A DNA stretch of 64,000 nucleotides from an uncultured bacterium (GTDB lineage Bacteria > Acidobacteriota > Thermoanaerobaculia > Multivoradales > JAHZIX01): positions 96,001-160,000 of the forward strand of contig CBDUPA010000006.1 of assembly GCA_965368975.1 (NCBI GenBank), in the 5' to 3' direction. Of this stretch, positions 41,608-61,349 are shown piece after piece (position 1 is the stretch's first letter; the number at the start of each line of letters is the position of its first letter). Both the position numbers and the translations under genes were made by a program. Below the pieces are notes generated by a model. The model ran no database searches, was not told where the DNA came from, and was given only the letters and a program-made list of their open reading frames with translations.

Positions 41608-42504
41608 TCAGGCCTCGGGTGCGTCCGAGTACCCGAGAGCCTGCCGCACCTCGGCGGTGAGCTCGAGTACACGGGCGGCTTCGCTGGCGTCGACCCGCTC
41701 GGCCTGCAGGCGATCGATCGATGGTTCGAGGAACGCGGGCACCTCGTCCGGTGCGAACCAGCGGTGGCTGTTCTGGTCATAGGGAGTGGAGTGGGACCCG
41801 TCCGGCTGCAGGTGCGGCTTGCACTTGAAGCGCAGGCGCTCGACGGCACCGCGTTCCAGGCCGGCATGGTGGTAGATCTCGTCGACTGAAGCCAGCGGCT
41901 CGTGCACCAGCTGTTCAAAGCGCAGCAGGTGGCAGGCGTCGAAGCGATCAGCATCGTCGAGCATGCGCTGGGCCAACCGGTTGTAGAACGGCGCGAAGGC
42001 GTCCGGTCCGGGGCTGATGCCGCGGCGGCGATGACTCTCGTAGAGCGCCACGGGATGGCGCACCAGGGCGAAGAAGGTCGCGTCGGGGTAGACCTCGAGC
42101 AGACGCTCGGTGAGGAAGGTCAGTCCGTTGTTGTTCTTGGCCACCAGGCGTGATGCCTCTACTTCGTCCCGGGTGTACGTTTGCCCCGGCGCTTTGATGC
42201 TCATGTCCTCGTCGTCCAGTGTGGTCAACTTGTAGCGGTAGAGCACACGATCGAGATAGCGTGCCGCCGCCCCGGTCAGAGGGCGCCGCGGTTGTAGGTG
42301 CCACTGGTCGAACAAGCGTGGCTGGCGGCTGAGCACGCGCACCCACAGGCCAGGCCAGGTACGGGCGCGTAAGCCGAAGTAGAAGATCTCCAGCGTCTCG
42401 CGCATCGGCGAGCAGACCTGTGGATGACTGAGCAGCAAGTTCCACAGAATGTTGCTGCCACCGCGCGAAAAGCAGTTGAGGAAGATGGGGCGATGATTGA
42501 GCAC
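41608..42504 (-). CDS. Sulfotransferase family protein
   Basis: 5'-PSB-like SRGGSNILWNLLLSHP, 3'-PB-like LVRHP...YES, RFEQLV..P; GAGGA SD before GTG. Confidence 0.82.
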   Translation of the reverse strand: MLNHRPIFLNCFSRGGSNILWNLLLSHPQVCSPMRETLEIFYFGLRARTWPGLWVRVLSRQPRLFDQWHLQPRRPLTGAAARYLDRVLYRYKLTTLDDEDMSIKAPGQTYTRDEVEASRLVAKNNNGLTFLTERLLEVYPDATFFALVRHPVALYESHRRRGISPGPDAFAPFYNRLAQRMLDDADRFDACHLLRFEQLVHEPLASVDEIYHHAGLERGAVERLRFKCKPHLQPDGSHSTPYDQNSHRWFAPDEVPAFLEPSIDRLQAERVDASEAARVLELTAEVRQALGYSDAPEA

Positions 42505-42533
42505 GATAGGTTCCTCTGAAAGGCTAAGGATAC

Positions 42534-43328
42534 TCAGTGCGGCAGGCTGGTGGCCAGTCCGTGGCGGGGATACTCCTGCTGGCGGCTCGAATACCGTTCG
42601 AGTGGGTGCCAATGGTAGCGATGGCTCTGCAGGATGTCTCGTACGTCGCGCTCCAGCTGGGCGCTGTGGACCTCGAAGATCCAGGTGGGTCGCACGTTCT
42701 GCAGAAGTTCGGTCGCTCCCTCGAGGACGCGGCACTCGGCGCCTTCGACGTCGACCTTGACCAACGTCGGAGGTCGATACAGCGCGGCGAACGTGTCCAG
42801 CGTGGTGAGCCGCACAGTGAGCTGCTGTGCGTCGAGTTGCTGTGCGTCGGTCTCGGGATGCTCACTCAAGGCAGCCACTGTCGTCGCCGCATCGGTGCCC
42901 AGGGTCAGCCGCGCGCTGCCTTCGCGTTCGGCGACGGCCGCCTCGATCAGCTCGATGGGGGCAGCCGAGCCGGTCGCTACGGCTAAATGGCGAATCCGTG
43001 CGGCGTTGGCTGGCAGGGGCTCGAAGGCGTAGACCTGCCCACGCGGACCCGCGGTGAGTGCGCTCAGCAGCGCAAAGTAGCCCAGATGAGCACCGACGTC
43101 GTACACGATGGCATCAGGTCGCAGTTGCCGTGTGAGAGCAACCTGGGCAGGTAGCTCATAGATCCCCAGCCGCTGGGCCAGGCCAGCCGCCGGTAGCCGC
43201 CGGCCTCGCAGGGGGCCGGCCACGACACGGTCTGTGGGTAGCAAGCGCCGCATCAAGGCCTCGAAAGGGCGGCGGGCGGGACTCCACCACAGGGAGGCCA
43301 GCAGACGCTGAGCCAGCGTCGGTGTCAA
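42534..43328 (-). CDS. FkbM-family methyltransferase
   Basis: YDVGAHLG, AFEP, TLD, KVDVEGAE. Confidence 0.92.
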   Translation of the reverse strand: MTPTLAQRLLASLWWSPARRPFEALMRRLLPTDRVVAGPLRGRRLPAAGLAQRLGIYELPAQVALTRQLRPDAIVYDVGAHLGYFALLSALTAGPRGQVYAFEPLPANAARIRHLAVATGSAAPIELIEAAVAEREGSARLTLGTDAATTVAALSEHPETDAQQLDAQQLTVRLTTLDTFAALYRPPTLVKVDVEGAECRVLEGATELLQNVRPTWIFEVHSAQLERDVRDILQSHRYHWHPLERYSSRQQEYPRHGLATSLPH

Positions 43329-44740: not shown

Positions 44741-46023
44741 GTCGTGGGCTCCTGACGCGCGGCGAGGAGATGATCACAGACTTCACGCACCGCGCCACGT
44801 CCTCCGGGCTTGCCGGTGACCCAGTCGGCAGTGGCGAGGATCTCCGGCCGAGCGTCGGCCGGGGCGATCGCCAGACCGGCCCAGCGCAGCGCGTCGAGGT
44901 CGTTGACGTCGTTGCCCATGAAAGCGACCTGGGCGGCGTCGAGACCGCGTTCGGTGGCCAGCTGCTGCAGTGCTTCGAGCTTGCGCGTGCAACTCTGCTC
45001 GCACGCCAGGCCGAGCTTGCGGCAGCGCGCCGCGACGACCGGGTTGGTCTCGCGCGAAAGCACGCGCAGCTCCAGGGAGCCGTGTTGCTCGGCGTCGCTT
45101 TGCTCGGCGTCGCGGCGCAGTCGCTCCAGGCCGAGGCCATCACCGCGGTGGCAGAACACCGCCTCGCGGCCGTCTTGGTCGACCAGCACCCGATCATCGG
45201 TCAGCACGCCGTCGAAATCGAAGACGAGGAGGTGAATGGCGGCAAGCCGAGCCAAGGCCGGCGCGGGTGCTGGTATCGGTGCTGGCGCCGACGCTGCCGA
45301 CTCGCTGCGGACGGTCAGCAAGCGCTCCATCAGCTCGAGGTCCCCTGGCTCATCGACCTGGAAAGAGTCGAGCGGATCCATCGGGTAGATGGCCACCTGG
45401 CCGCCCAGGCGGTTACCGTCGCGCCGCAGAATCTCGGGCTTGAAGACGTAGATAGAGCCGTTCTCCAGCCAGTCTTCGCCGATGTCCTGGCGCCGGGGAC
45501 GGTGCTGGAAGTCGTAGGTCAGCGATCGTGGTACTTCGTCTTCCTGCTGGCGCCAGACGAAGCCGTGCACCGGGCAGGCCGAGAACAGGCTGTCGGCCTG
45601 CTGGCGTTCCAGCGTCTCGATTGCGGCGTCGATGGCGCCGGGGCGGCGTAGCGGCGACGTGGCCTGTAGGAAGACCAGCAGATCCGGTGCGTAGCCCTCG
45701 GCCGCGAGGACCTCCAACGCATGGCTGAGAGCCGACTCGGAGGATGCAGTGTCGCCGCTCAGGTCGGCCGGCCGATCGATCACTTCGGCCCCCGCGCTGC
45801 GTGCGGTGTCGGCGATCTCGGCGTCATCGGTCGACACGACCACCCGATCGACGCGCTGCGCCGCCAGCGCCTGCTCGACGGTGTGCACCAGCAGCTGCTT
45901 GCCGGCCAGAGAGCGCAAATTCTTGCGCGGAACTCCCTTGGAGCCGCCGCGGGCGGGGATCAGGGCCAGGATCTTGGCGTGTCGGACCTGGACTTCCGGG
46001 GCCTCGGTGGGGGACTGGCTCAC
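44737..46023 (-). CDS. neuA: Acylneuraminate cytidylyltransferase fused to KdsC-like HAD phosphatase
   Basis: IPARGGSKGVPRKN, LQATSPLR, ENGSIY; C-terminal FDFDGVLTD, MGNDVND, GGRGAVRE. Confidence 0.9.
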   Translation of the reverse strand: MSQSPTEAPEVQVRHAKILALIPARGGSKGVPRKNLRSLAGKQLLVHTVEQALAAQRVDRVVVSTDDAEIADTARSAGAEVIDRPADLSGDTASSESALSHALEVLAAEGYAPDLLVFLQATSPLRRPGAIDAAIETLERQQADSLFSACPVHGFVWRQQEDEVPRSLTYDFQHRPRRQDIGEDWLENGSIYVFKPEILRRDGNRLGGQVAIYPMDPLDSFQVDEPGDLELMERLLTVRSESAASAPAPIPAPAPALARLAAIHLLVFDFDGVLTDDRVLVDQDGREAVFCHRGDGLGLERLRRDAEQSDAEQHGSLELRVLSRETNPVVAARCRKLGLACEQSCTRKLEALQQLATERGLDAAQVAFMGNDVNDLDALRWAGLAIAPADARPEILATADWVTGKPGGRGAVREVCDHLLAARQEPTT

Positions 46024-47339
46024 GCGTCCTCCCGCGTCCGTGCTTCGTTCTCGTGGCGGCGGTTCCAGGCCAGCTCGGGACGGACAACCCCCGGTCGCTT
46101 GGGCTCCAGGTGCGAGCCGACGGCACCGGTGTCCTCAATGTCGAAGAAGAGAATGTTGTTGAAGCGTCCCAGGTGCTTCTTGCGCCCGTCAGCGCCAGCG
46201 TGCACCGACACCACCAGCCGCCCGGGGGCCAGCAGTCGTCCCGGAATGCGGCAGCGGTTGACGAAGCGACCGGCGGGGCGCTCGTCGGTGTAGCGCAGAT
46301 CGTCGGCGTCGTACGTCTCTAGCACTTCGACGCCGTGGATGGTGGACAGCTGCAGGCCGACGCGGTACTGCTGTACCGGCCGCAGCAACTCGTACTCCAG
46401 CTCGATGTCGAAATCATGTACCGGGTCGAGGCTGGCGGTGACACCGCGGTCTGGGTGGACCAGGCGGAGCGCGTGCAGGCGAAAGTCCGGTGCATTGGTG
46501 TCGTCGAGACCTTCCGGCCATTCGCGCTGACCGCTCTCGTCAGCTTCGCGCAGCAGGTACTGTGAGATCACCTGGTCGGTCGGGCCCTCGGCGACCAGCT
46601 GACCTTGCTCGATCAGCAGGGCGCGCTCGCACAGCCGGCTGACGGCTGCCAGATTGTGGCTGATGAAGATGACCGTTCGCCCCGAGCGGGCCACCGAGCT
46701 GAGCTTGCCCAGGCACTTGCGCTGGAAACTCAGGTCACCGACCGACAGCACCTCGTCGACCAGCAGGATCTCGGGTTCCAGGTGCGCGGCGACGGCGAAC
46801 GCCAGGCGCACGTACATGCCGCTCGAGTAGTGCTTGACCGGCGTTTCGATGAAGCGCTCCAGCTCGGCGAACTCGACGATGTCGTCGAACTTGCGATCGA
46901 TCTCCTGGCGCGTCATGCCGAGAATGGCTCCGTTGAGAAAGACATTCTCACGGCCGGTCAGCTCCGGATGGAAGCCGGTGCCGACCTCGAGCAGTGAGCC
47001 GACGCGCCCGCGCAGCCGAACCTCTCCGGTCGACGGTGAAGTGATGCGCGACAGGATCTTGATCAGCGTGCTCTTGCCGGCGCCGTTGCGACCGATCACT
47101 CCGACCACCTCGCCGGTTTCGACACGGAACGACAGATCGCGCAGTGCCCACAGCTCTTCGTCGCGATCCTCGGCGGCAGCACGTCCTTGGAGCAACGCGC
47201 GCACCCGGCGGGCAGGTGCGCTCAGCGCGTCGGTGACGCTGTCGCGCAAGGTGCGGTACCGGTGCCGGCGCAAGGCACCGATGTGGTAGACCTTCGACAG
47301 GTTCTCGACTTCGATGGCATACGACATGTCAGACGACAT
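46020..47339 (-). CDS. wzt: Polysaccharide ABC transporter ATPase with Wzt C-terminal domain
   Basis: GRNGAGKST, GFHPELTGREN, YSSGM, LLVDE. Confidence 0.95.
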   Translation of the reverse strand: MSSDMSYAIEVENLSKVYHIGALRRHRYRTLRDSVTDALSAPARRVRALLQGRAAAEDRDEELWALRDLSFRVETGEVVGVIGRNGAGKSTLIKILSRITSPSTGEVRLRGRVGSLLEVGTGFHPELTGRENVFLNGAILGMTRQEIDRKFDDIVEFAELERFIETPVKHYSSGMYVRLAFAVAAHLEPEILLVDEVLSVGDLSFQRKCLGKLSSVARSGRTVIFISHNLAAVSRLCERALLIEQGQLVAEGPTDQVISQYLLREADESGQREWPEGLDDTNAPDFRLHALRLVHPDRGVTASLDPVHDFDIELEYELLRPVQQYRVGLQLSTIHGVEVLETYDADDLRYTDERPAGRFVNRCRIPGRLLAPGRLVVSVHAGADGRKKHLGRFNNILFFDIEDTGAVGSHLEPKRPGVVRPELAWNRRHENEARTREDA

Positions 47340-48186
47340 CCGCGAAACTCTTCTCCATGCGCCGGAAGAAGTAGGCACCGCTGACCAACAGCAGCACCGA
47401 GACCACCGAAGACACCGCCAGCATAGGCCCTGGAGCCGTGTCGGTGCCGAGCAGAGCCCAGCGGAAACCCTCGACCACGCCGACCATCGGATTGATGCTG
47501 TAGACGGTGCGCCAGGGCTCACTGAGCAGGCTACTGGGGTAGGCGATGGGGGTGGCGAAGAGCCAGATCTGGATCAAGAACGGTATGACGTGACGCACGT
47601 CGCGGAACAGCACGTTCATCGCCGAGAGCCACATACCCACTCCCAGGCAGGTAGACATGGCGAGCACGAAGAGCAGGGGCAGCCACAGCACCTGCTGCGT
47701 CGGCACGATACCGTAGAAGCCCATCATCACCAGTAGAACGGTGAAGGCGAGGACGAAATCGACGATCCCCGCGGTGACCGACGCCAGCGGCAGTAGCAGG
47801 CGTGGGAAGTAGATCTTCTTGAGCAGGTTCTGGCTGCCCACCAAGCTGTTGGTGCAGTTGGTCAAACCGGTAGCGAAGAAGGTCCAGGGGACCAGGGCGG
47901 CATAGCTGAAAATGGGGTAAGGCAAGTCGTCGGACGGAATGCCACCGAGTTTGCCGAAGAACAGACTGAACACCACCATCGTCAGCAACGGCTGCAGGAT
48001 CGCCCAGGCCGCGCCGAGGGCGGTCTGCTTGTAGCGTACCTTGACGTCGCGCCAGACCAGGAAATAGAGCAGCTCCCGGTAGTCCCACATCTCGGCCAAG
48101 TCGAGCTGCACCCAGCCGGTGCGTGGACGAATGACGACCAAGGGCGGCTCGGCGGCCGCCCTGGAAGGAAACGCGACGTCAGGCAT
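47329..48186 (-). CDS. wzm: Polysaccharide ABC transporter permease
   Basis: RDVKVRYKQT.LG.AW, KIYFPR, TPIAYP, NPM. Confidence 0.95.
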   Translation of the reverse strand: MPDVAFPSRAAAEPPLVVIRPRTGWVQLDLAEMWDYRELLYFLVWRDVKVRYKQTALGAAWAILQPLLTMVVFSLFFGKLGGIPSDDLPYPIFSYAALVPWTFFATGLTNCTNSLVGSQNLLKKIYFPRLLLPLASVTAGIVDFVLAFTVLLVMMGFYGIVPTQQVLWLPLLFVLAMSTCLGVGMWLSAMNVLFRDVRHVIPFLIQIWLFATPIAYPSSLLSEPWRTVYSINPMVGVVEGFRWALLGTDTAPGPMLAVSSVVSVLLLVSGAYFFRRMEKSFADVV

Positions 48187-48192
48187 CGTGGG

Positions 48193-49131
48193 TCAGGGGC
48201 CCGAGGGCGATACCGGTGGCAACAAGGGCTGGTTGTCGTCCTGAGCGATCAGGATACCGCCCCCCGCGGTCACGGCCGCCGCCAGCGGCAGCAGGATTTC
48301 CTTCTTCTTCCACCAGGCGATGACGCAGGCTCGGCAGACCTCGTCCGAGCGCAGCAGGCCTTCCGGGTTGATGCGGGTCACGATGCCCGAGCACATCCAG
48401 TGGAAGACGTTCTCGCCGCGCTTCCAGTAGGCGGTCTCACCGACCGTCAAGTTCTCCGCCACGCTCTCTTGCTTCGGGGTGAGAGTGGTCGGGCAGTCCG
48501 GTGTGACCTCGGTGACCAGCATCGGTGAGCGGGCCACCACCTTGCCGGTAGCGTCGAGAACCTCGGAGTAGTACTCGGTCGGTTCGTTCTCCAGACCTTC
48601 GAGCCAGGTCTGCAAGTCTTCGCGCGTCAGGTCGGCCATCCAGTCGCGCTTCAGCTGCTTGCCTACCGACGCACGCTCGCGAATGATGTCCTGGTCCAGG
48701 TTGTGGTTCGGGTCGCGGTCGGTGGAGGCTTCCTTGGCGTTCCACCATTCCGCCCAGCTGGTGTCTTCGCCACTGCCGGCTTGGTACTCGATGTCATCGA
48801 GCAGGCCGCGGGCTTCGAGGATCTGATCTTCGGCCTTGGGCAGCACGGACCAGTAGCTACCGCCACCCTGCGGGTAGGCTTCGACGTAGTAGAAGTCTTC
48901 GACCTCTTCATGCAGGCGGCGGAAGTAGACTCGCACGGAACCACCTGGGGGCTCGTTCTGTGCGTTCAGCGTCACGATGCCGTTCTGCTCGATCGGCAGG
49001 CACGTGACCTGGTCGAGGCTGACCGTGGTCTGGGCCACGGCCGCGGCCGGAACGAAGAGGCCTGCGCAGACGAGCAGCAGGGTGCCCAGCAGAAGGGTGG
49101 GGAGCATCGAAATCAACGGTTTGCGTGCCAT
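48193..49131 (-). CDS. Secreted hypothetical protein with C-terminal hydrophobic helix and ...PPVSPSGP tail
   Basis: GGAGG SD; signal peptide ending AVA-Q; C-terminus CRACVIAWWKKKEILLPLAAAVTAGGGILIAQDDNQPLLPPVSPSGP. Confidence 0.85.
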   Translation of the reverse strand: MARKPLISMLPTLLLGTLLLVCAGLFVPAAAVAQTTVSLDQVTCLPIEQNGIVTLNAQNEPPGGSVRVYFRRLHEEVEDFYYVEAYPQGGGSYWSVLPKAEDQILEARGLLDDIEYQAGSGEDTSWAEWWNAKEASTDRDPNHNLDQDIIRERASVGKQLKRDWMADLTREDLQTWLEGLENEPTEYYSEVLDATGKVVARSPMLVTEVTPDCPTTLTPKQESVAENLTVGETAYWKRGENVFHWMCSGIVTRINPEGLLRSDEVCRACVIAWWKKKEILLPLAAAVTAGGGILIAQDDNQPLLPPVSPSGP

Positions 49132-49207: not shown

Positions 49208-50197
49208 TCACGGCGCGGCCAAGATCTTGGTCTCGTAGCGGCTGACGAAATCGGTTCGCTGCAGATTGGGTAGGCAGCGCCGCATCACCGTCGCTGCATA
49301 CTCGGTGTCGCCGGACTCGTAGAGGGCCACGGCCATGAAGAATTGCAACACCGGTTGTGCGTCCGAGGGCACGCCGCCGCGCTGGAAGTACTCCGCGCTC
49401 ACCTGCCAGTGCGAGGCGCGGTAGGCGATCTCGGCAGCCAGGTGTTGCGCCTCGGTGGACTCCGGGTGGCGGCTGGCGACGTCCTGAGCCAGCTCGAAGG
49501 GGCGCTCCAACTCTTCGCCGCGGGAAGCGAGCCGCATCTCTTCGCGTGCGCGGCGCAGCTGCTCGCGGTCAGCTGGTGACAGCGGTGTGGCCCGGGGCAC
49601 GGCGTTGGCCGGCTCGACATCATCGTCGTCGGCCGCGCGCTCGGCGCCGTCCGCGGTGGGGCTATCGGTGTCCGGCGCTGGCGCCTCACCGTCGTCTAGG
49701 GAGGCTGGCAAGAGCGGTCGGAAGGTCGGCACGGCCTGCAGCGTGTAGCTGGGCATCAGCTGGACGAGGGTTCCTTCGAACCGGTTTAGTAGGTCGCGCG
49801 GCAACTGTACACGCGTGTAGACGCGGAAGCGTTGCTCGACTTCCAACAGCCGCCGTGCCGTGGCGCGGAAGGCCTCCTGATCATTGGCGTCGGCCTGCGC
49901 CAGTCCCAAGCGGATCAGGCATTCGGTCAGCAGCGGCGGTTCTTCCAACATACCGAAGCAGGCGAGGCGCAGAAGTCGCTGCGCCGCGCTGGTATCCCCG
50001 CGGTGGTAGGCGTCGCTGCCATTCTGCAGCAACCGCTGGTAGAACGGGTCGACCGTCGCGCGAGCCGGGCTGGCCACGGCCATGCCCGCGAGCAGAAGCG
50101 CGAGAACGAGAACGCTCAGGGCAAGCGGCCGCGAGACTCCCGTACGCGAGATGAGGGCGCCTGGAGCCGTGTGGTGGTTCGTCGAAGGCTGATTCAT
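49208..50197 (-). CDS. Exported helical-repeat (TPR-like) protein
   Basis: Signal or TM segment, two Ala/Leu-rich helical regions separated by an acidic Pro-rich linker. Confidence 0.7.
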   Translation of the reverse strand: MNQPSTNHHTAPGALISRTGVSRPLALSVLVLALLLAGMAVASPARATVDPFYQRLLQNGSDAYHRGDTSAAQRLLRLACFGMLEEPPLLTECLIRLGLAQADANDQEAFRATARRLLEVEQRFRVYTRVQLPRDLLNRFEGTLVQLMPSYTLQAVPTFRPLLPASLDDGEAPAPDTDSPTADGAERAADDDDVEPANAVPRATPLSPADREQLRRAREEMRLASRGEELERPFELAQDVASRHPESTEAQHLAAEIAYRASHWQVSAEYFQRGGVPSDAQPVLQFFMAVALYESGDTEYAATVMRRCLPNLQRTDFVSRYETKILAAP

Positions 50198-50242: not shown

Positions 50243-51043
50243 TCAAGATACCGACCCCAGAGGCCTGTTTTCGACCACACAGCGGGGGTTGTCCTCGGTG
50301 AGTATGCGGGCCAGTTCCGGGCCCCACCGGTCGTGAATGCGGTAGACCGCTGCCTGGACGCTCGGTGGACGTCGCGTCAGGCCGTGACAATCACTGGCCA
50401 GAAAGTGCCCCAGACCGGCGTCGAGTATGGCTTCGGCAGCCTGCATCGGTCGCCGGCCGAAGCTGCCGACCACACTCATGGCCGTCAGCTGTAGCGTGGC
50501 GCCGAGGGACACCAGGTGACGCAGACGAGGGAGATCTTCTGCCAGCCAGGGAAGCAGTTCCGGGTGTGCGAGGATCGGCCGCCAGCCAGCTACGTGGAGC
50601 TCGTGGACGATGCTCTCGGGTCGTGGTCCCAGTCCCGTGCGGGCAAATTCAATGAGCAGGTATCGGCTGTCTCCGAGGGGACGGATGCCGCTGTCGGGCC
50701 AGCGTTCGAGGTCTTCGAGTAGCCCATCGTCGACCCGGATCTCGGCACCGGACAGGATGCGGAGGCGATCCCCCACGGCTTCCTGCAGCTGTTGCGTCAG
50801 GTCCCGCAGGTGCTGTCCGTCGCCATTCCACCAGTGCGGATGGCGCTGGTGCGGGGTGGCGAACATCACCTCGAATCCGTCGTCGGCAGCGGCCTGGCAC
50901 ATCGCCACGGCTTCCTCCAGCGTCTCGGCACCATCGTCGATGCCAGGTAGGAGGTGACCGTGAATGTCGATGCGCCGCCGGGCCTTGGGAGCGCTGGAAG
51001 CCGGGAGTTCCGAATCTCCGCTGACAGTGTGCGCTCGAAGCAT
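50243..51043 (-). CDS. CpsB/CapC (PHP-family) tyrosine phosphatase
   Basis: DIHGHLLPGIDDG, ATPH, LAHPE, ASDCH. Confidence 0.93.
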   Translation of the reverse strand: MLRAHTVSGDSELPASSAPKARRRIDIHGHLLPGIDDGAETLEEAVAMCQAAADDGFEVMFATPHQRHPHWWNGDGQHLRDLTQQLQEAVGDRLRILSGAEIRVDDGLLEDLERWPDSGIRPLGDSRYLLIEFARTGLGPRPESIVHELHVAGWRPILAHPELLPWLAEDLPRLRHLVSLGATLQLTAMSVVGSFGRRPMQAAEAILDAGLGHFLASDCHGLTRRPPSVQAAVYRIHDRWGPELARILTEDNPRCVVENRPLGSVS

Positions 51044-51053
51044 CAGGATTCCG

Positions 51054-53603
51054 TCAGGCCGCAGAGCTGCGTGCTGATCCGCGTGATTGGTCCCGAGTCC
51101 GCTTCTCATCAGCTTCCTGGCGGCCGTCGGGTCCGTAGCCGTAGTAGAGATACTTGCGGGCGCGGTAGCTGCTGCCGGTCGGACGGTGGCGGTTGAGCAC
51201 GGCACCCAGCAGGCGCACGCCCGACAGCGCCAGGCGCTGGTGCAGCGTGCGCGCGGCATCGCGCTGCAGGCGACCGGCGCGGCAGCACAGCACCATGCCG
51301 TCCACCAAGTAGCCGATCAAGGTGGCATCGGTGACCGCCAGTGTCGGAGGCGTGTCGATCAGCACGAAGTCGTACTGCTTGCGCACGTGGGCCACGAACT
51401 GACGCATGCGTTCCGACGCCAGGAGCTCGGAAGGGTTGGGAGGAATGGGGCCGGACGGGCACAGGTAGAGGTTCGGCACCTTGGTGCTGAAGAGGGCGTC
51501 GCGGGCCTCGGCCGTGCCGGTCAGGTAGTTCACCAGTCCCTTGCGGTTGGAGATGCCGAAGACCTCGTGCTGCCGTGGCTTGCGCAGGTCGGCGTCGATA
51601 ATCAGCACGTTGCGCCCGAGCTGCGCCATCACCACCGCCAGGTTGGAGACTGTGGCGGTCTTGCCCTCGCCGGCTTCGGCGGAGGTGATGGCGATGGCGC
51701 GCAGCTCGTCGGCGGTCGACAGCAGCAGCGCGGTGCGCAGCGACCGGTAGGCTTCGGCGACCGCCAAGCGCGGGCTGCTGTGTGGCAGTAGCTCGATCTG
51801 TGCCGGCAGCTCGTCTTCCTTGTCTGCCGTTCGTCGGCCTTTACGGCGCTCAGGACTCTTGGACGTCGAAGGCTGGCCGTAGCCGTAGGAATAGCCGTAG
51901 TTGTAGCCGTAGCCGCCGTCCTCGCTGTTGACGTCCGGTACCACGGTGAGGGTTGGCACGTGCAGCAAGCGTTCCAGCTCGTCTGGGTTCTTGACGGTGC
52001 GGTCCAGGTACTCGATCAGCACCGCCAGGCCGAGGCCCAGCAAGAGGCCGGCAGCCAGACCGAGCGTCAGATTCTTGCGCAGCGACGGCCGGAACGGGCC
52101 GCCGGGGACCAGTGCCGTGTCGATAATTCGCACGTTGGAGTCTCGAGTGTTCTGTAGGCGAACGGTGACGTCAGTCTCCGATTGCCGGCGCAGCAGCTCG
52201 TTGAGCAACTGGCGCCGCGTGTTGACCTCGTCTTCGAGATTGATGTACTCCAGCTCAGTGGACTTCTGGTCCAGGCTGCGTGCCTTGAGCGTCTCGATTT
52301 CCTGCTCCAGCGCCCGTTCCTGGCGCAGCGCCGCCTGGTACTCGGCGCGGGCCGTCTCGCGAGCCTTCTGAGCGTTGTCCAGGATGGTCGAGTTCAGCGA
52401 TTGACGGGCCTTCTCGATGCGTCCTTTCAGCTCGACCATCTCCGGCCATTCTTCCTTGAAGGTGTTGAGCCGGGCGTTGTAGTCCTGCTCCAGCTGGAGC
52501 ACCAGCGAACGTTGGGCGCTCACCTCGCCGCCGCTGTACTGATCGGCGACGTTCTCGGCCGGGCTGGCGACGCGTTCCTCGTACAAGGCCTGCTTCTCGA
52601 TGCGCTGCTTCTTGGCCTCGATGTAGTCTTGGTTGAGAGCGCGCAGGCGCTCGAGCGTCACGTTGGAGGCCGGATCGAGCGCGATGTCCGTACGTCGAGA
52701 CAGTGCTTGCAGTAGCTGCTCGCGCTCGGCGATCTCGCCCTTCAGCGTCTCGACCTGCTCGCCGAGAAAGGATGAGGCGCGTCCCGCCGTCTGGAAGCGC
52801 GTCTCAATGCCCATGTCGATGAAGGCTTCGGCGAAGGCGTTGGCCAGCCGCGCCGCGCGCTCGGGATCGTTGGCGCGGTAGGTCAGTTCGACCAGCTGCG
52901 TTCCCTCGATCCGGCGCACGCCCAGGCCGCCGCGAATCTGGTTGGCCACGCGCGCCATCTGTGCCCGATCCGCGGCCAGCGCATCGGTGGCCAGGGGATC
53001 GTCGTTCAGGTCGGCATCGGTGGTTTCCGTGTCGTGGAGGGCGACCGCGCCAGCGTCGTCCAAGCGCAACTGCCGGACCACCCGTTCAGCCAGGCCGCGA
53101 CTCTGCAGCAGGCGTTCCTGGGTGGGGTAGTACTCCATGTTCCACCAGTTGTCGAGCCAGGGACTGGCGTTGCCGGTCAGCGGCGACAAGCTACGCCGTT
53201 CGAGTTGCAGCAGGGCGCGCGCCTGGAAGGCCTTGGGAGTGATGAAGAACTGGACGATGCCGATGCCCAGGCACAGCAGGCAGACCAACGTCACCAGTCG
53301 CCAGTGTTGCTGCAGCTTGTGCAGATACTCCTTGATGTCGAACTCGCCCTCGCCGAAGTCTCCTGTGTCCATCATTCCCGGGGGCATCAAGGCTGGTGGC
53401 CCCATTCCAGGCGCCCCCATTCCAGAAGTAAGGGCTGGGGGGGCCTGGGCACCGAACTGCCAGCCCGGTCCGGCTCCCGGAGGCACGGCCCCCGGAGGGT
53501 AGTTGCTTGGCATCTCACCGGAGCCGACCACCTCGGCGGAACCTGCAGGGACGGCAGGAATCTGGATCGGACCCGTACCGCTAGTCGAGAAGCGTTGACT
53601 CAA
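51054..53603 (-). CDS. wzc: Polysaccharide co-polymerase / tyrosine autokinase
   Basis: Two TMs flanking a coiled coil; EAYRSLRT, GEGKT, IDADLRKP, IDTPP; C-terminal YLYYGYG. Confidence 0.95.
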   Translation of the reverse strand: MSQRFSTSGTGPIQIPAVPAGSAEVVGSGEMPSNYPPGAVPPGAGPGWQFGAQAPPALTSGMGAPGMGPPALMPPGMMDTGDFGEGEFDIKEYLHKLQQHWRLVTLVCLLCLGIGIVQFFITPKAFQARALLQLERRSLSPLTGNASPWLDNWWNMEYYPTQERLLQSRGLAERVVRQLRLDDAGAVALHDTETTDADLNDDPLATDALAADRAQMARVANQIRGGLGVRRIEGTQLVELTYRANDPERAARLANAFAEAFIDMGIETRFQTAGRASSFLGEQVETLKGEIAEREQLLQALSRRTDIALDPASNVTLERLRALNQDYIEAKKQRIEKQALYEERVASPAENVADQYSGGEVSAQRSLVLQLEQDYNARLNTFKEEWPEMVELKGRIEKARQSLNSTILDNAQKARETARAEYQAALRQERALEQEIETLKARSLDQKSTELEYINLEDEVNTRRQLLNELLRRQSETDVTVRLQNTRDSNVRIIDTALVPGGPFRPSLRKNLTLGLAAGLLLGLGLAVLIEYLDRTVKNPDELERLLHVPTLTVVPDVNSEDGGYGYNYGYSYGYGQPSTSKSPERRKGRRTADKEDELPAQIELLPHSSPRLAVAEAYRSLRTALLLSTADELRAIAITSAEAGEGKTATVSNLAVVMAQLGRNVLIIDADLRKPRQHEVFGISNRKGLVNYLTGTAEARDALFSTKVPNLYLCPSGPIPPNPSELLASERMRQFVAHVRKQYDFVLIDTPPTLAVTDATLIGYLVDGMVLCCRAGRLQRDAARTLHQRLALSGVRLLGAVLNRHRPTGSSYRARKYLYYGYGPDGRQEADEKRTRDQSRGSARSSAA

Positions 53604-54493
53604 AAGAACGACTCCTTGACGATCACCACATCTCCGTCGCGGAGTTTGAAGTCCTGACGCTTGCCAGAGATGATGTCCTTGTAGTCGAGTTGGATTTCTT
53701 CGTCCGTACCGTCCGTGCGTGCCCGCTTCACCGTTACCTTGGAGGAGGCGCGATCACTCAGGCCGCCGGCACGCGCGATGGCGGCCAGCAAGGTCAGGCG
53801 CTCGTTGCTCTTGAACTCCATGGCACCGGGACTCTCTACCTCGCCCAGGCAATAGACGATATAAGTGGCGGTCGCCGGGACGTTGATCAGGTCGTTGGCG
53901 AAGATCGGGATGTTGAAGTTGGGATCAGCGTGCACCAACAAGGCGTCGACCGGGATCTCGATCTGATCCGAAAGTCCGTTGTCCGAGCGGCGTAGCACGT
54001 AGAGCACCGGGCCGTGGTTCTCGGCCAGGCCGCCGGCGGCGGTGAGTGCTTCGATCAGGGTCCAGCGTCCGGGAAAGGCGAGATCGCCCGGCTGCTGGAC
54101 GGCACCGATCACCGAGATCGGGCTGGAGCGGAACTCCCGTACCTGGACGGACACGGTGGCGCGCTGGAAGTAGCGCTCCTCGAGAATCTCTTTCAGCCGC
54201 AGCCGTAGCTGGTCCGCGGTCAGGCCCTGGGCGCGCAGCTCGCCGACCGGCGCGAAGTTGATGTTGCCGTCCTCGTCGACACGCAACTCGCCGTTCAGGT
54301 CCGGCACCTCGAAGACCCGGATTTCGAGCAGATCCTTGGGGCCGATGCGGTAAGTGGCGCCTATGTTGGCCGCCACGGGGATCTGAGCCTTCAGTGCTGG
54401 CAGGACCAGCAGGGCCAGCGCACAGAGCGACAGCGCTGTTGTCAGTGCTGCCGTCAAGCTCCGGGATTGCGCAGAAGGTCTCGTCATGGCCAA
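53600..54493 (-). CDS. wza: OPX polysaccharide export protein (Poly_export plus SLBB domains), short non-lipoprotein type
   Basis: YRIGPKDLL.I.VF, GAVQQPG, AGGL repeats; ends DGDVVIVKESFF. Confidence 0.9.
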   Translation of the reverse strand: MAMTRPSAQSRSLTAALTTALSLCALALLVLPALKAQIPVAANIGATYRIGPKDLLEIRVFEVPDLNGELRVDEDGNINFAPVGELRAQGLTADQLRLRLKEILEERYFQRATVSVQVREFRSSPISVIGAVQQPGDLAFPGRWTLIEALTAAGGLAENHGPVLYVLRRSDNGLSDQIEIPVDALLVHADPNFNIPIFANDLINVPATATYIVYCLGEVESPGAMEFKSNERLTLLAAIARAGGLSDRASSKVTVKRARTDGTDEEIQLDYKDIISGKRQDFKLRDGDVVIVKESFF

Positions 54494-55797
54494 TCCACTC
54501 CACCGAGTTTCAAGGAGATGCCGGTGATGATGCGAGTCACCGATCGGTCCAGGCCGGGAAGGTTCGAGTCGTACTCACTTTCCGTGGCTCCCAGGCGCAG
54601 TGTCAGGGAGTCGGTGAGCTCGAGCTGAGCCACGGCACCAAACGACATCGTATCGTCTTGGCGGGCGGCAACGCCAATGCGGCCCAGTTTGGCCGTGTAG
54701 TCGTGCCGTCCTTCCTCGATGTAGAGCTGCAGGTTCGACGAGCTGCCGAAGGTGAAGACCAGGCTGACGCCGGTATTCTCGCGGGTGAAGTACGCGTAGT
54801 CGTTGGCTGCCGAGTAGGACGGGGAGCGTTCACCGTAGACGGCCAGTTGCAGCCGCGGGCGCAGCTGGTAGTTGATGCGCAGGACACCTTCCAGCTCGTC
54901 CTGGTAGGGCGTGAAGCGGGATCCGATGCCGTCCGGGTCGAGGGAGCGCAGCACGGCGTCGAGCCGCACTTGCAGCCGCGCACCTTCGTAGCTGGCGTCC
55001 AGGAAAGGGGAGCTGCCCTCGTTCGACAGGCTGTTGGTGGGATCGCGGAACTCAGTTTCCACGCGTTCGACACCGGCGCCGATGCGCAGCTGGTCGGACA
55101 CATGCCAGCGTAGGCCGGTGCGGAAGACGTCCTCGTCCCTATCCAGCACGTCGAGGGATGCGACGCGCTCGTCCAACTGGTCGACCAGGTTGCGGTAGCT
55201 GCTGAACGAGATACCAGTGAACAACCAGAGGTTGCGGGTCAAGCCGACTTCGACCAGGCCTTGTTGGTTTTCGCGCCGCGACGTGATCTGTTGCAAGACC
55301 TCCGGTGTGACGAAATTCTGGCTCTCCTCCCAGTCGCCCACCAGCTCCAGCACGAAGCGGTTGAAGTGGCCGTAGTACCCCGCGCCGTAGCGTCCGTTCC
55401 AGCGTCGGTTGCGCTCCAGGTCCTGCCACCAGACGTACTCCGGGAGCGCGTGCGCGGCCAGTATCGACTTGCTGCCGAGTGGCAGGAAGCCGCGCAGGCC
55501 GGCGCTGATGGTGAGCGTGAAATCACTCACCGCCTCGTCGTCGCGGGTGCCGAACACGTTGTCGACATAGCTGGCGTCGCGGATCTCTAGCGACGGTGAC
55601 AGGCGGAAAGCGCCCAACTCCCAGGGGGCCTTCCGTACTGCTTCCTGCAAGCGCTCGCGGCGCTCCTCGGGCGTCTGAGCGAGACTGCCGGGGGGCGTAT
55701 ACTGCTGCAACTGAGCACGGACCTCGCCGCTGGCCCACAAGCAACAGAACAGGCCCAGCAGGAGAACGCCGTGCCGTTGGATAAAGTTCACTTTCAT
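54484..55797 (-). CDS. Outer-membrane beta-barrel protein associated with polysaccharide export
   Basis: Signal peptide, YVDNVF motif, alternating aromatic/hydrophobic strands; directly upstream of OPX; start MKVNFI. Confidence 0.8.
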   Translation of the reverse strand: MKVNFIQRHGVLLLGLFCCLWASGEVRAQLQQYTPPGSLAQTPEERRERLQEAVRKAPWELGAFRLSPSLEIRDASYVDNVFGTRDDEAVSDFTLTISAGLRGFLPLGSKSILAAHALPEYVWWQDLERNRRWNGRYGAGYYGHFNRFVLELVGDWEESQNFVTPEVLQQITSRRENQQGLVEVGLTRNLWLFTGISFSSYRNLVDQLDERVASLDVLDRDEDVFRTGLRWHVSDQLRIGAGVERVETEFRDPTNSLSNEGSSPFLDASYEGARLQVRLDAVLRSLDPDGIGSRFTPYQDELEGVLRINYQLRPRLQLAVYGERSPSYSAANDYAYFTRENTGVSLVFTFGSSSNLQLYIEEGRHDYTAKLGRIGVAARQDDTMSFGAVAQLELTDSLTLRLGATESEYDSNLPGLDRSVTRIITGISLKLGGVDWP

Positions 55798-57349
55798 GAG
55801 TCGTAAGCTATCACGATCGTCACGCGGCAGAGGTTTGTCGCGGTCCCGCAGGCCGCGCACTACGGGTGTTTTCCGCGTCCTCGGCTTGTGGTCAATCCGG
55901 GTCTGGCCCCCTGAGCGGTATCGCCGGCATGCGGTCTTGTTGGCCGCGGTCCTGGCCTTGATGGTTGTGGGGTTCGCTGTTCCCTTCGGCGGTGTCCTAC
56001 GTGGGGCGTTGGTGGTGGCGCAGCTCCTCGCCTTCGTGACCGCCGCCTGGGTGCTGCTGGCGGCGCGCCGCCTCGCACACCTGCGGCCGGTGGCCTGGCC
56101 TGTCGCTGCACTGCTCGCCTTGGCTTTGTTCGGTTTCCTACAGACCCTACCGTTGCCGGGAGCGGTGGTCGAACTCCTATCCCCACGGCACGCTGAACTC
56201 TATGCCGAGGTGGGGCTCGATGCTCCCGGCATGGGCGCCAGGAACATGGACGCCAGGAGCAGCTTGGACGGTGGCCCCTGGCCGACGCTCTCCGTCTCGC
56301 CGCGGGCCAGCCGAACGACAGCCCTCCATATCCTGGCGCTGGCCGCGCTGATGCTGGCGGCAGGCTGGGTCGGACGGCACAGTTCGCATCGACGACTGCT
56401 GGTGCTGGCGTTGGCGGCGTCGGCACTGTTCCAGGTCTTCTACGGCGCTCGAGCCTGGCTGGTGCGCTCCGATCACATCCTGGGCGTCGAGGTTCTCGGC
56501 GATGCGAGTCGTCTGCGCGGCACCTTCGTCAACTCGGACCATCTTGCCCTGTACCTGGAAATCGCTCTGCCGGTCTTGCTGGCGGTCACCTTCTGGGGTT
56601 GGCGGCAATGGCATCGGCAGGAGAACCTGGAACGACGTGTGGCGCAGGTTGCGGTGCCTGCACTGGTGTGGGTTGTGCTGTTCGTCGGTCTCGCCTTCAG
56701 TGGTTCGCGTGCCGGTCTGCTGGCGGCGGCCGCTGGCTTCGTGGTGCAAGTCGTGCTGTTCGTCATCGGCTGGGGTCGACGCCGGGGTGTCAAAGGCTTG
56801 ATGCTAGGAGCCTTTGTCGGGCTGGCGGGAATCCTGGCCGTTCTGGCGACGGGCGCGCGCGAAGGCTTCGGCCGTTTGCTCGGTACCTCGACCTACGAGG
56901 TGACCTGGAATGCCCGACTCGACACCTACCGAGCCTCCTGGGAACTCTGGCAGCAATTCCCTCTCACGGGTACGGGACTTGGTACCTTCAGGGAGGCGTT
57001 CCCGCTGGTCCAGCCGAGATCCTTGCCTGGCTGGTGGTGGCACGCGCACAGTGATGTGCTGGAACTCCTGGTCACTGGCGGTCTGGTGGCCGTGCTGCTG
57101 GCCGGTGTCGGGCTCTTGGCGCTAGTGCTGCGTCTGCTGCAGGTCCTACGCTGGGGAGGCCGCAGTGAAGAACGCGCCGCTGCCGTCGCGGCCTTGGGCG
57201 CCCTCACCTCGGTGCTGCTGCACGAAGCGGTGGATTTTGGTCTCACCATGCCAGCCAACGCGTTCACCCTGGGCGTTCTGTGCGCGGCTGCGGCGGCCGT
57301 CCGTCTGCCGGGGGACGCAGGGGAGAGATCTCCTGACGCGGCTTACTGA
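55796..57349 (+). CDS. O-antigen ligase family protein (true start probably downstream of 55796)
   Basis: GTFVNSDH, SGSRAG, R...., TGTGLGTF, HAHSD; many TMs. Confidence 0.87.
   Translation: MSRKLSRSSRGRGLSRSRRPRTTGVFRVLGLWSIRVWPPERYRRHAVLLAAVLALMVVGFAVPFGGVLRGALVVAQLLAFVTAAWVLLAARRLAHLRPVAWPVAALLALALFGFLQTLPLPGAVVELLSPRHAELYAEVGLDAPGMGARNMDARSSLDGGPWPTLSVSPRASRTTALHILALAALMLAAGWVGRHSSHRRLLVLALAASALFQVFYGARAWLVRSDHILGVEVLGDASRLRGTFVNSDHLALYLEIALPVLLAVTFWGWRQWHRQENLERRVAQVAVPALVWVVLFVGLAFSGSRAGLLAAAAGFVVQVVLFVIGWGRRRGVKGLMLGAFVGLAGILAVLATGAREGFGRLLGTSTYEVTWNARLDTYRASWELWQQFPLTGTGLGTFREAFPLVQPRSLPGWWWHAHSDVLELLVTGGLVAVLLAGVGLLALVLRLLQVLRWGGRSEERAAAVAALGALTSVLLHEAVDFGLTMPANAFTLGVLCAAAAAVRLPGDAGERSPDAAY
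55805..55813 (-). promoter_or_regulatory. Extended -10 promoter 7 nt before the first gene of the export operon
   Basis: Minus strand TG-A-TAGCTT-ACGACTC-ATG. Confidence 0.55.
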
Positions 57350-58965
57350 AGCTGCAGTGTGCCCGGCTGCCAGCCGCCGCCGGCCAGTCGCTCCAACTCC
57401 AGCACATGCGTCTCGGACGCCGCCAACGGCGCGGGCAACTGCAGGCGCACCTGCCGTCCGGAACGGGCAATGACAGTGTCGAGGATGTAGCCATCCAGGC
57501 GCACCTCGATCACCGCGCCCACCGGGCTGACGGTGCCGAAGCTGAGCGTCAGGCTGCGAGCCTGATCGCGAGTCTGATGGGTGGCCGGTTGCTGATCCTG
57601 CCAGGCGAGCGAGAACACTTCCCCTTCTTGACGCCATGCCTCGGCGGGCCATCGATCGCGATCGAACCTCGCGAGTTGTTGCTGTACGGTGGCGAGCCGG
57701 TCGGCGTCGTCCGCCGCGCGCGCCCAGCGTTCTTCCGCTTTCAGGTACGCCAGCCGCGACCGCCAGCTGTCGGCGACACGGTCGAGTGCCGCGCGGGCCA
57801 ACCCTGGCTGGTTGCGCGCCAGCAGGAGATTCGCCTTGGCGATCAAGTAGGGGGCCCAAGGTGTGGTCCAGAGTTCGGCGCCCGCGTGACCTTCCAGCTG
57901 CTCGGCGACCGCCAGTTCGCCGCCCACGGCCATTGCCAGTGCCGCGCGGTCCGGCGGTAGGTCGTGGGTCAACCCAGCCATGCGCAGGACAACGGCCGGA
58001 GCCACCGGCAGTGGCCGCAACAATGCCAGGCGCAGCAAGCGGTCGAGCGGGTCCACCAGGGCCGGCACCCGGTTGGCGCCGGCCGGGCTGCGCGTGATCG
58101 CCTGCTCCAGCCGCTCGTCGTCGCGCGGGCTCGCCGGTCGCAGCTGGATGGCCACGTTGAGGAACTGGCCCCGCGCGCGCCGCAGGTCGCCGCCCGCGCG
58201 TCGTTCCTCGGCTTGCTCGAGCTGCGCGTCGAGGAAGCGGCTCAGGGCGTCGAGGTAGTGCCTGTGGGCGTCCAGGTAAGCGGTCCACTGGTGATCGGCA
58301 GCGTAGATTTCTTGGATGCGCTGCCAGTTCTCCGGTCGGTCCGGAATCACCTCGAAGGCCTCTCGGCGACTGGCCGCTCGCTCCAGCCAGGCGGGAATCA
58401 GGGCATCGAAGAGCGCGGGTTCGAGCAAGGTCCGGTGGAGGATCTCCCGTGCATGCTGACGCCGGTCGGCCGCCAGCATCGGCCACAGCTCGAGGTAAGC
58501 GGAAGCGAGGAAGCGCGTTGGCTCCAAGGTGCCGGGTGCCAGCTCGATGCTGCGCTCCAGGGGTTTCTGCCAAGCTTGTGACTGCAGGATCAACCGCTCG
58601 TCACGGCGTAGCGTCCATTCGAGGTAGGTGCTGGCGCCGAGGGCCCAGTGCACCTCCCAGGCGCCCGGCAGACGCGGCGCGAGATCCTCGGCCAGCTGGT
58701 GAGCTCTCTCTAACTGCTGGCTGTATTGCTCGGCGTCGGCGGTCCGGTGCAGGATCAGCTGCCGCAACAGGCGCACTCGAGCCCGCGTGCTGTCGCGCTC
58801 CCGGTACAGCTGCTGCCGCTCACTCGCCCCGACCTCCAGTGCCTCGGCTTCCGCCACCACCTGAGCGCGGTTGGTGACGTAGGCCTGCCATTGAAAGACC
58901 GCCAGCAGAGCCCCCACGGCCGCGAGGGCGACGAGGACGAGGCGGGTGGGCCGAGCGTCGTGCAT
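57343..58965 (-). CDS. Membrane-anchored TPR-like protein with C-terminal beta domain
   Basis: N-terminal TM (LVLVALAAVGALLAVF), long Ala/Leu/Arg helical repeats; TACTAT 9 nt before ATG. Confidence 0.7.
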   Translation of the reverse strand: MHDARPTRLVLVALAAVGALLAVFQWQAYVTNRAQVVAEAEALEVGASERQQLYRERDSTRARVRLLRQLILHRTADAEQYSQQLERAHQLAEDLAPRLPGAWEVHWALGASTYLEWTLRRDERLILQSQAWQKPLERSIELAPGTLEPTRFLASAYLELWPMLAADRRQHAREILHRTLLEPALFDALIPAWLERAASRREAFEVIPDRPENWQRIQEIYAADHQWTAYLDAHRHYLDALSRFLDAQLEQAEERRAGGDLRRARGQFLNVAIQLRPASPRDDERLEQAITRSPAGANRVPALVDPLDRLLRLALLRPLPVAPAVVLRMAGLTHDLPPDRAALAMAVGGELAVAEQLEGHAGAELWTTPWAPYLIAKANLLLARNQPGLARAALDRVADSWRSRLAYLKAEERWARAADDADRLATVQQQLARFDRDRWPAEAWRQEGEVFSLAWQDQQPATHQTRDQARSLTLSFGTVSPVGAVIEVRLDGYILDTVIARSGRQVRLQLPAPLAASETHVLELERLAGGGWQPGTLQLQ

Positions 58966-59004
58966 GGTGTCGGTATAGTAGCTCAACGAAACCTCGATCC
59001 CGCC

Positions 59005-59427
59005 ATGCCGCCCATCCCCACTCCCGCAGCCAGCCGCAAGACCCAGCAAGCCGCCACCTCGGGCTCGCTGCGCGGTGCCGTCCTGTGGGCGCTGCTGATC
59101 TTCGTCCTGCTGTCGATCCCGACCGGCCTGGTCGTGCCGTCTGGTTCCGGGCGCTTGCTCGACTTCCTGCCCGACCTCGTCGCGGACACGATCCGCCTGC
59201 TCGCCGACAAAGCTGTTCACGCAGTGCTATTTGCCGGGCAGGCTCTGTGGCTGCGCCGTGCCGGCTGGACGGCCGGACGCGCGGTGCTGTGGAGCGCTGC
59301 CTACGGCGCCGCGACCGAGCTCTACCAGGCACTGTTGCCGTTCCGTTCCGGGGACGTCTACGACCTGCTGGCGGACATCCTCGGCGCGCTGCTGGCGGTC
59401 TGGTGGTGGCGCCGGCGCGACCGTTGA
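59005..59427 (+). CDS. VanZ-family membrane protein
   Basis: LWALLIFVLLSIP, DKAVHAVLF, TELYQALLPFRSGDVYDLLAD.LG. Confidence 0.88.
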   Translation: MPPIPTPAASRKTQQAATSGSLRGAVLWALLIFVLLSIPTGLVVPSGSGRLLDFLPDLVADTIRLLADKAVHAVLFAGQALWLRRAGWTAGRAVLWSAAYGAATELYQALLPFRSGDVYDLLADILGALLAVWWWRRRDR

Positions 59428-60894: not shown

Positions 60895-61349
60895 TGTCCT
60901 CCCTCGACACCTCCGCCAAGGCGTTCAGCTGGGTTCTGGTCGTCCTGTTGCTGGCCGCTCTGGCCTGGCAGGTCCAAGACAGCCGCGACAAACTCGAAGC
61001 CAGCCGGCTGCTCTACAAGGTGGAAGGCATCAGCTACAGCATCCTCGCCACCGGACAGGCTCCGCGTCAGGCCCTGGCGCAAAACCTACGCGACCTGCGC
61101 CGCGCTGGCGAGCTGGATCCCCTGGAAGTCGGTGTGCCGCTGGCCACCGGTAGCCAGTATCTGCTCATGCAGAGTCCCAATCAGGCCGTCGAGGCGTACC
61201 GCGAAGCCCTGGAGCTGGAACCGCGGCCGGAGATCTACCTGAATCTGGGCAAGGCACTGGTCATGGCGGGGGACAGGAAAGCGGCGGACGAAGCCTTCGA
61301 CAAGGCTGTCCGCCTGGCGCCGCAATTGGCGTCGGAAGTGCCGCAGTAG
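60894..61349 (+). CDS. Membrane-anchored TPR protein
   Basis: N-terminal TM; AVEAYREALELEP..EIYLNLGKAL...A..AFDKAVRLAP; overlaps the ligase stop. Confidence 0.85.
   Translation: MSSLDTSAKAFSWVLVVLLLAALAWQVQDSRDKLEASRLLYKVEGISYSILATGQAPRQALAQNLRDLRRAGELDPLEVGVPLATGSQYLLMQSPNQAVEAYREALELEPRPEIYLNLGKALVMAGDRKAADEAFDKAVRLAPQLASEVPQ

Follow-up and report, generated by a model that had tools for sequence, protein, structure and literature searches.

A predicted exported protein with a conserved and portable C-terminal tail, a candidate accessory subunit of an exopolysaccharide export machine in Thermoanaerobaculia

We analyzed a 64,000-nucleotide stretch of DNA (the window; positions 96,001 to 160,000 of contig CBDUPA010000006.1 in assembly GCA_965368975.1) from an uncultured bacterium of the acidobacterial class Thermoanaerobaculia, order Multivoradales. 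The study centers on a minus-strand gene at 48193..49131 of the window that encodes a 312-residue protein (P0001), referred to below as the target. With a probability that we put at roughly 55%, the target is a lineage-restricted, membrane-associated accessory subunit of a Wzc/Wza/porin exopolysaccharide export machine of the class-3 OPX type (OPX standing for outer-membrane polysaccharide export). Its family is conserved, syntenic and present in single copy, and combines a signal-peptide-like N terminus and a modeled immunoglobulin (Ig)/fibronectin type III (FN3)-like core with a flexible tail that is conserved and portable. The most common Wzc/Wza machines are those whose OPX protein is pore-less, and work on their list of subunits is still under way. 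The family adds a further constant gene to such an export block in one bacterial class, and the seat of its function appears to be a short terminal peptide, retained on two unrelated domains. If this peptide serves as a docking or ligation site, it would be a small handle of eight residues and one Ser, which could inform how the export machine acquires accessory proteins or how polymer is retained at the cell surface.

The target gene comprises 312 codons plus a TGA stop. A plus-strand reading of the same interval contains a stop and was ruled out. The features of the frame are far beyond chance, as the same architecture recurs in hundreds of relatives and the GC content at third codon positions (GC3) is 0.85; GGAGGA stands immediately 5' of the ATG. 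The translation bears out the signal peptide, the acidic mature domain with five Cys and the unusual C-terminal tail that had been described in the original prediction, a note made on this DNA from the letters alone, and the stop lies, as stated there, six bases from the ATG of an ABC-2 permease gene (wzm). The signal peptide (residues 1-33; 49033..49131, minus strand), recognized by eye, begins with MARK, including R3 and K4, continues with a hydrophobic h-region and ends in AVA|Q (residues 30-33). AxA-Q ends align in the relatives, and an AlphaFold2 (AF2) model places a helix at residues 10-25 and the beginning of the domain at residue 36. The mature domain (residues 34-265; 48337..49032, minus) contains 42 Asp/Glu versus 20 Lys/Arg residues and has a pI of 4.4. 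Cys residues occur at position 22 within the signal peptide and at positions 44, 213, 247, 266 and 269 of the mature protein, and all of the latter except C269 are nearly invariant across the family. The tail, also encoded on the minus strand, opens with CRAC-VIAWW-KKK (residues 266-277; 48301..48336), which holds the last Cys pair, a Trp pair and a basic cluster. It proceeds with a Gly/Ala-rich hydrophobic stretch of 18 residues (279-296; 48244..48297), conserved in length and variable in sequence, with a Kyte-Doolittle mean of 1.84 over 19 residues, and closes with an acidic spacer and the terminal motif (residues 297-312, QDDNQPLLPPVSPSGP-COOH; 48196..48243), in which Ser308 and Pro312 are conserved. 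Written in order, the tail reads CRACVIAWWKKK / EILLPLAAAVTAGGGILIA / QDDNQ / PLLPPVSPSGP.

The AF2 model of the target, built from 120 sequences, reached a mean predicted local distance difference test score (pLDDT) of 87.6 and a predicted template modeling score (pTM) of 0.81. Block means were 93-98 over residues 31-260, apart from a dip to 66 and 87 at residues 111-130, and 50-65 in the tail; the terminal peptide is predicted to be flexible because its pLDDT is 50-61. The modeled core is a generic split Ig/FN3-like β-sandwich (residues ~34-100 and 181-212) with a helical insertion (residues 104-180; 48592..48822, minus) and a small Cys-bearing subdomain (residues 213-265). The insertion is missing from short family forms of ~220 residues, which match the target in two stretches. 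Foldseek returned nothing from the PDB at E ≤0.001. The best score of a wide VIA-align search against the same database was Z 7.1 (rmsd 2.8, 97 residues); numerous unrelated Ig/FN3-like sandwiches tied at this level, each aligned across residues 33-214.

The target matches no Pfam model, and no NCBIfam model at E values up to 0.1, sorting-signal models included. A word-indexed protein search recovered 358 proteins at E ≤0.001, all unnamed or annotated as hypothetical; where sources were named, they were Acidobacteriota or Holophagales metagenome-assembled genomes. An exhaustive search yielded 205 clusters at 50% identity, and a search of the ESM Atlas with the target returned only unnamed Acidobacteriota clusters. 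Nearly all of the 71 family loci in reference genomes are labeled Acidobacteriota/Thermoanaerobaculia, including Multivoradales and Sulfomarinibacteraceae, while a few carry other or no phylum labels. Among 151 sampled genomes of the class, 33 contained the family, usually with one gene each (this tally includes one unpublished genome, G104, and is the only one to draw on it), and the genome of the target itself has a single copy. Our searches of the literature, on C-terminal sorting signals and exosortases in Acidobacteria (which led to an S-layer review) and on exopolysaccharides and Wzc in Thermoanaerobaculia, turned up no account of the family or its tail. As far as these searches go, family and C-terminal module are undescribed within a known kind of export system; they are limited to one class of mostly uncultured bacteria.

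We surveyed tail conservation in 215 of 270 collected family proteins, namely those in which the core motif is followed by 25 residues or more, without preselecting endings. SPxxP or [ST]xxxP was located at or near the C terminus in 180 of these 215: 125 end exactly in SPxxP and 12 in [ST]xxxP, 38 have one to ten residues after SPxxP and five carry SPxxP deeper inside. None of these endings occurs in the remaining 35, which include close variants (for example, VSVSVP), fusions to DUF900 and broken sequences. Across the 215 proteins, the run lacking charged or amide residues has a median length of 18 residues and a Kyte-Doolittle mean of ~2.0. Its flanks carry a mean net charge of +1.0 in the eight residues before it and −1.9 after it; this strongly conserved, inverted order agrees with the earlier statement that the arrangement differs from PEP-CTERM- or LPXTG-type signals. 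In one subgroup, the stretch is followed by basic residues (...TIEKREPRRASDIQP). Tails were also anchored on the last [ST]xxxP (195 of the 215), a step that imposes only the Ser/Thr and the last Pro and leaves the remaining columns free. The resulting profile reads [IVL][IVL]-D-D-D-[DP]-P-P-[PE]-[VA]-S-P-[SD]-x-P, with Ser in 94% of the anchored tails, the next Pro in 84% and an end right after the last Pro in 70%. S308 and P312 are also among the 18 near-invariant columns of alignment A2, which is not independent evidence because its sequences were chosen for that ending.

Several irregular forms of the tail were noted. In six members of ~600 residues (P0137, P0140, P0181, P0183, P0212 and P0248), a DUF900 α/β-hydrolase domain replaces it. 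At L032:12837-13046 (+), 2 kb downstream from the family gene, a 70-residue open frame copies the last 42 residues encoded by that gene almost exactly and appears to be a partial duplicate of the tail. One genome, G031, contains three identically scoring tail matches (C11:4203-4301, C13:4006-4104 and C6:543127-543225), two of which adjoin matches to the family N-domain; these represent either several copies or assembly duplicates.

The terminal motif outlasts the hydrophobic stretch. Ten loci, mainly from Sulfomarinibacteraceae, code for full-length relatives that have a signal peptide and ~45% core identity, lack the stretch and end in ...CxxCVPC-LNQATVLNYTIGG-AVSPSDF. These variants retain a C-terminal VSPSxF, with V-S-P-S in the same register to the C terminus as in the target. 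Since they keep the motif without a span, it must there be located on the exported side. In an AF2 model of one such variant, the tail had a pLDDT of 52-57 and was not seen to dock onto its own domain, which points to a free peptide outside the fold.

The tail also occurs on a protein with an apparently unrelated N-domain. A second family of 45 proteins, including one from genome G010 in which Pfam finds nothing, carries a signal peptide of its own and an N-domain unlike that of the first family, and 42 of the 45 have the same tail, CxC-K-x-WW-hydrophobic-DDDE-x-x-A-S-P-[ST]-x-P-COOH. When the two families were compared with hhalign, only 30 columns, all in the tail, aligned. G010, reported as 100% complete, has no gene of the first family in the scan of 151 genomes; its second-family gene is situated between Wzc and CpsB, beside a Wzy_C-tetratricopeptide repeat (TPR) fusion. 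The persistence of the motif after loss of the stretch and its presence on an unrelated N-domain speak for the tail behaving as a functional module.

The original prediction had called the tail a candidate sorting or glycosylation signal and proposed, as a check, a hidden Markov model of the tail to look for unrelated secreted proteins sharing it in this proteome and relatives. This check did not support a signal shared by many secreted proteins. Searched against 97,386 six-frame open reading frames (ORFs) of the target genome, the tail profile recovered only the target (E 6e-16), and the next match, at 0.035, was a 42-residue off-frame ORF. A regular expression for tail-like ends matched 118 of the 97,386 ORFs. 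On visual inspection, the hydrophobic stretch was confined to the target, and the other matches resembled the off-frame, Arg/Pro/Ser-rich ORFs that a GC-rich genome yields. Over the 151 genomes of the class, a tail profile matched at 21 places in 19 genomes, 18 of which have a single matching gene. Seventeen places coincide with known family genes, one is a third putative copy in G031, one is the G010 gene and one is a weak partial match in G095 (E 0.009). The last, in G092, lies inside a Ser/Thr-kinase-like protein and was taken as chance. In a collection of 5.8 billion proteins, a 47-residue tail profile, whose query alignment included the G010 tail, found 71 proteins: 69 also match the family core, and the two matching in the tail only belong to the second family. 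The tail does extend beyond orthologs of the target, to a second family with an unrelated N-domain, but 69 of the 71 matches in the collection are family members. On these sequence searches, the tail is a private feature of this export machine and not a proteome-wide or multi-substrate sorting signal.

These scans bear directly on the idea of a cleavable sorting signal comparable to PEP-CTERM, LPXTG or GlyGly-CTERM, in which a dedicated peptidase would recognize and remove the tail and attach the protein to the envelope. Like those signals and MYXO-CTERM, the target has a tripartite tail at the extreme C terminus of a secreted protein; the tail is conserved and portable between two families, and PEP-CTERM systems likewise occur in polysaccharide loci. 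The known signals, however, have many carriers per genome, whereas here there is one, and no NCBIfam sorting-signal model matches. The order is inverted as well, running from basic through hydrophobic to acidic, with the motif at the very end and no basic terminus, and KKK rather than PEP precedes the stretch. The conserved gene block contains no protease or sortase-like gene that might process the tail. The earlier statement that no exosortase is present holds for the window but not for the genome, which has one exosortase-like match (PF09721, 33.5 bits). Its presence is a point for a sorting signal, but it lies on another contig, outside the window and the locus (G000 contig C3:414019-414471 (-)), and is the only such match of the genome. 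A genome-wide scan with the PEP-CTERM model TIGR02595 found no carrier, with all controls silent too. We consider a cleavable signal very improbable. What stands of the sorting-signal interpretation is that the tail is real, conserved and modular; it is not common to many secreted proteins, which removes the tempting reading of a new multi-substrate sorting system.

The gene neighborhood links the target to a polysaccharide export machine. Upstream on the same minus strand lie, in gene order, a probable outer-membrane β-barrel partner of the OPX protein (458 residues; 54484..55860; weak EpsL match of 21.8 bits against a cut-off of 275), a short Wza (OPX) protein, a Wzc-type co-polymerase with a tyrosine kinase domain (51054..53603; Wzz, GNVR and AAA_31 matches), a CpsB/CapC-type PHP phosphatase (50243..51259; PF19567, E 3.4e-45) and an exported 329-residue protein without a Pfam match. 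The true CpsB start is probably further in because the match begins at residue 97. The 329-residue protein (49208..50197), which has a signal peptide and helical repeat-like ends, is the most constant neighbor. The Wza protein (297 residues; 53600..54493) contains only Poly_export and SLBB domains and ends in ...KESFF; it lacks a C-terminal membrane helix, and its signal peptide contains LSLC, by eye a non-canonical lipobox.

Synteny was counted over loci with sufficient flanks. Among loci whose family protein has the stretch, the gene for the 329-residue protein lies within 2.5 kb in 32 of 48 with at least 2.5 kb upstream. With at least 7 kb upstream, this gene, Wzc and Wza are found together within 7.5 kb in 27 of 36 loci, and CpsB and the outer-membrane protein also in 24 of the 36. 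By comparison, wzm occurs within 3 kb in five of 45 loci with at least 3 kb downstream. A short Wza-like gene stands directly upstream in seven of nine stretch-less loci with at least 2.5 kb upstream; in one of them (L034), it is preceded by a BBP2_2 porin gene (1.4e-14), the counterpart of the 458-residue protein of the window. Because of these counts, the target belongs with the OPX side and not with the abutting ABC transporter. Its placement in an export operon by the original prediction was correct as to the export block, but the conserved partners are Wza, Wzc and CpsB upstream, not wzm/wzt. The wzm gene (47329..48186, minus; PF01061) and the wzt gene for the ABC ATPase (46020..47522, minus; weak Wzt_C match below cut-off) most likely serve a second, separate polymer pathway.

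The block resembles the class-3 OPX system WzaB-WzpB-WzcB of Myxococcus xanthus as portrayed in the portions of the source consulted (PMC12819527). Both have a short Wza without an outer-membrane helix and with a Phe-Phe end, a Wzc co-polymerase/kinase and a phosphatase; the adjacent β-barrel gene and the C-terminal docking peptide of the M. xanthus system have a probable and a proposed counterpart here. In that partial account, WzaB binds the porin WzpB through its Ser-Phe-Phe end, which export requires, WzaB must be lipidated, and no subunit like the target is named (PMC12819527). The target tail differs in ending with SPxxP after a hydrophobic stretch instead of Phe-Phe. The WzaB end is a precedent for a C-terminal docking peptide in such machines, and the KESFF end of the Wza of the window resembles it.

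If the target is an accessory subunit of this kind, Sec would export it, and the folded domain would be seated directly on the membrane by the Trp-Trp pair and the hydrophobic stretch, because these follow the last conserved Cys at once. The acidic P-[VA]-S-P-x-x-P-COOH end would then act as a flexible short linear motif, either docking on a further component of the machine or being modified there. Among the roles that the end could have in an accessory subunit, that of a periplasmic docking peptide is the most likely. The stretch-less variants and the inverted charges argue for a periplasmic location of the terminal peptide, while the length and hydrophobicity of the stretch and the basic subgroup argue for a membrane span with a cytoplasmic end.

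Several observations weigh against an accessory subunit of the export machine. The charges flanking the stretch (+1.0 before, −1.9 after) are inverted relative to the positive-inside rule for an out-to-in anchor, with the exception of the subgroup that has basic residues after the stretch, so a plain inner-membrane anchor is no comfortable fit. None of the export genes was seen in nine of the 36 long-flank loci; in three of these nine (L005, L047 and L068; ~5-10 kb in each locus), the genes directly upstream encode a HerA-like ATPase and a protein of Metallophos/kinase-like type. Lastly, the modeled fold offers no functional clue, the best Z being 7.1 and all matches generic.

The same conflict over topology bears on a different function, in which the stretch is a true inner-membrane span and the peptide, on the cytoplasmic side, influences the kinase domain of Wzc or the phosphatase CpsB. 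In Firmicutes, the cytoplasmic C-terminal end of the membrane modulator CapA reportedly activates the kinase CapB, a precedent for such regulation, and the target shares with CapA/CpsC-type modulators the layout of a membrane-bound protein with a short C-terminal end that may influence a kinase encoded nearby. The 18-residue median run with its Kyte-Doolittle mean of ~2.0 and the basic residues after the stretch in one subgroup are consistent with a span; Wzc and CpsB are constant neighbors, and the second-family gene of G010 lies exactly between the two. The ten stretch-less loci nevertheless keep a VSPSxF that must be on the exported side, with no Wzc nearby, and the family-wide charge bias is opposite to that of a cytoplasmic end. 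Unlike the known modulators, the target lacks a Wzz domain and has one stretch rather than two spans, span-less variants exist, and the Wzc of this locus, already fused and complete, does not depend on a separate modulator. A kinase regulator therefore seems rather unlikely. The charge order around the stretch, with basic residues, a C-terminal span and a short outside end, is also that of bacterial tail-anchored proteins. These have a cytoplasmic domain and no signal peptide, whereas the target has a signal peptide and conserved Cys pairs.

Alternatively, the stretch could form an outer-membrane helix like the C-terminal helix of Escherichia coli Wza, so that the target would be the partner of a short pore-less Wza and its terminal peptide would face the cell surface. 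With or without the stretch, the family gene accompanies the OPX/porin pair, the Wza encoded here lacks a C-terminal membrane helix and a canonical lipobox, the charge order is unlike that of an inner-membrane stop-transfer sequence, and small-residue patterns in the stretch would suit helix packing. A stretch of such strength is, however, expected to stay in the inner membrane during Sec export, and the stretch-less variants would lose the proposed function. We find this placement hardly credible.

Modification of the terminal Ser, suggested in the original prediction, has to be weighed together with the Wzy_C-family genes of the locus. The target would then be a dedicated substrate of an undescribed O-glycosylation or anchoring route, with Ser308 receiving a glycan, possibly the polymer of the locus, from a Wzy_C-family enzyme. 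TfpO/PilO enzymes modify the C-terminal Ser of pilins, and the target resembles PglL/TfpO substrates in having a Ser beside Pro in a flexible segment near a possible membrane anchor, with Wzy_C-family enzymes in the locus. The Ser, present in 94% of tails at the anchored position, is flanked by Pro; PPVSPSGP lies in a Pro-rich segment; the tail is flexible in both AF2 models (pLDDT 50-65); and the stretch-less variants keep the motif, there on the exported side. The window contains three Wzy_C genes. One of them (55796..57349, plus; PF04932) is divergent from the export block and holds its place by synteny in most loci. The other two are located at 32588-34150 (-) and 59509-60894 (+). A small TPR protein (60849-61349) comes after the latter; G010 has a single 865-residue protein that joins the Wzy_C and TPR parts. 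As far as the portions of the source consulted go, PglL-type O-oligosaccharyltransferases are Wzy_C proteins that are often encoded beside their target and act on Ser residues close to Pro within flexible segments (PMC3643930), a precedent for Wzy_C enzymes encoded near their targets.

None of the three Wzy_C proteins of the window, however, matches the PglL_A motif, and a genome scan for PglL_A gave no match, with weak controls. Within the same limits, that source also describes PilO-type enzymes without PglL motifs (PMC3643930), so a missing PglL_A match does not exclude an O-transferase. Stretch-less loci have no Wzy_C match within 10 kb, Wzy_C genes are expected in such loci anyway, as polymerases or ligases, and the Ser would be cytoplasmic and out of reach if the stretch spans the inner membrane. 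With these points on either side, we regard O-glycosylation of the target as a tentative and on the whole doubtful option. In a combined form, the tail would be a portable module by which different exported domains are fitted into the Wzc/Wza machine, with the invariant Ser as the point at which a Wzy_C-family enzyme ligates the polymer. This would make the target a membrane-held anchor or primer for exopolysaccharide, that is, a protein-tethered capsule in a diderm; we think it quite unlikely.

The export block is part of a polysaccharide locus that extends from ~21 kb to 63 kb of the window. Besides the three Wzy_C proteins, this locus encodes two priming transferases, several glycosyltransferases, a deacetylase and a cytidylyltransferase/HAD fusion. 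A sulfotransferase and two FkbM-type methyltransferases are also encoded (41608-42735 (-), 42534-43328 (-) and 26912-27721 (+)), which suggests that the locus polymer may be sulfated and methylated. A 625-residue protein without a Pfam match, encoded at 57343-59220 (-), sits at the far end of the export block, a position that it retains in most of the related loci. At the other end of the window, a 4779-residue frame at 12-14351 (+), possibly cut by the window start, encodes a nonribosomal peptide synthetase with four condensation, five adenylation and five carrier stretches.

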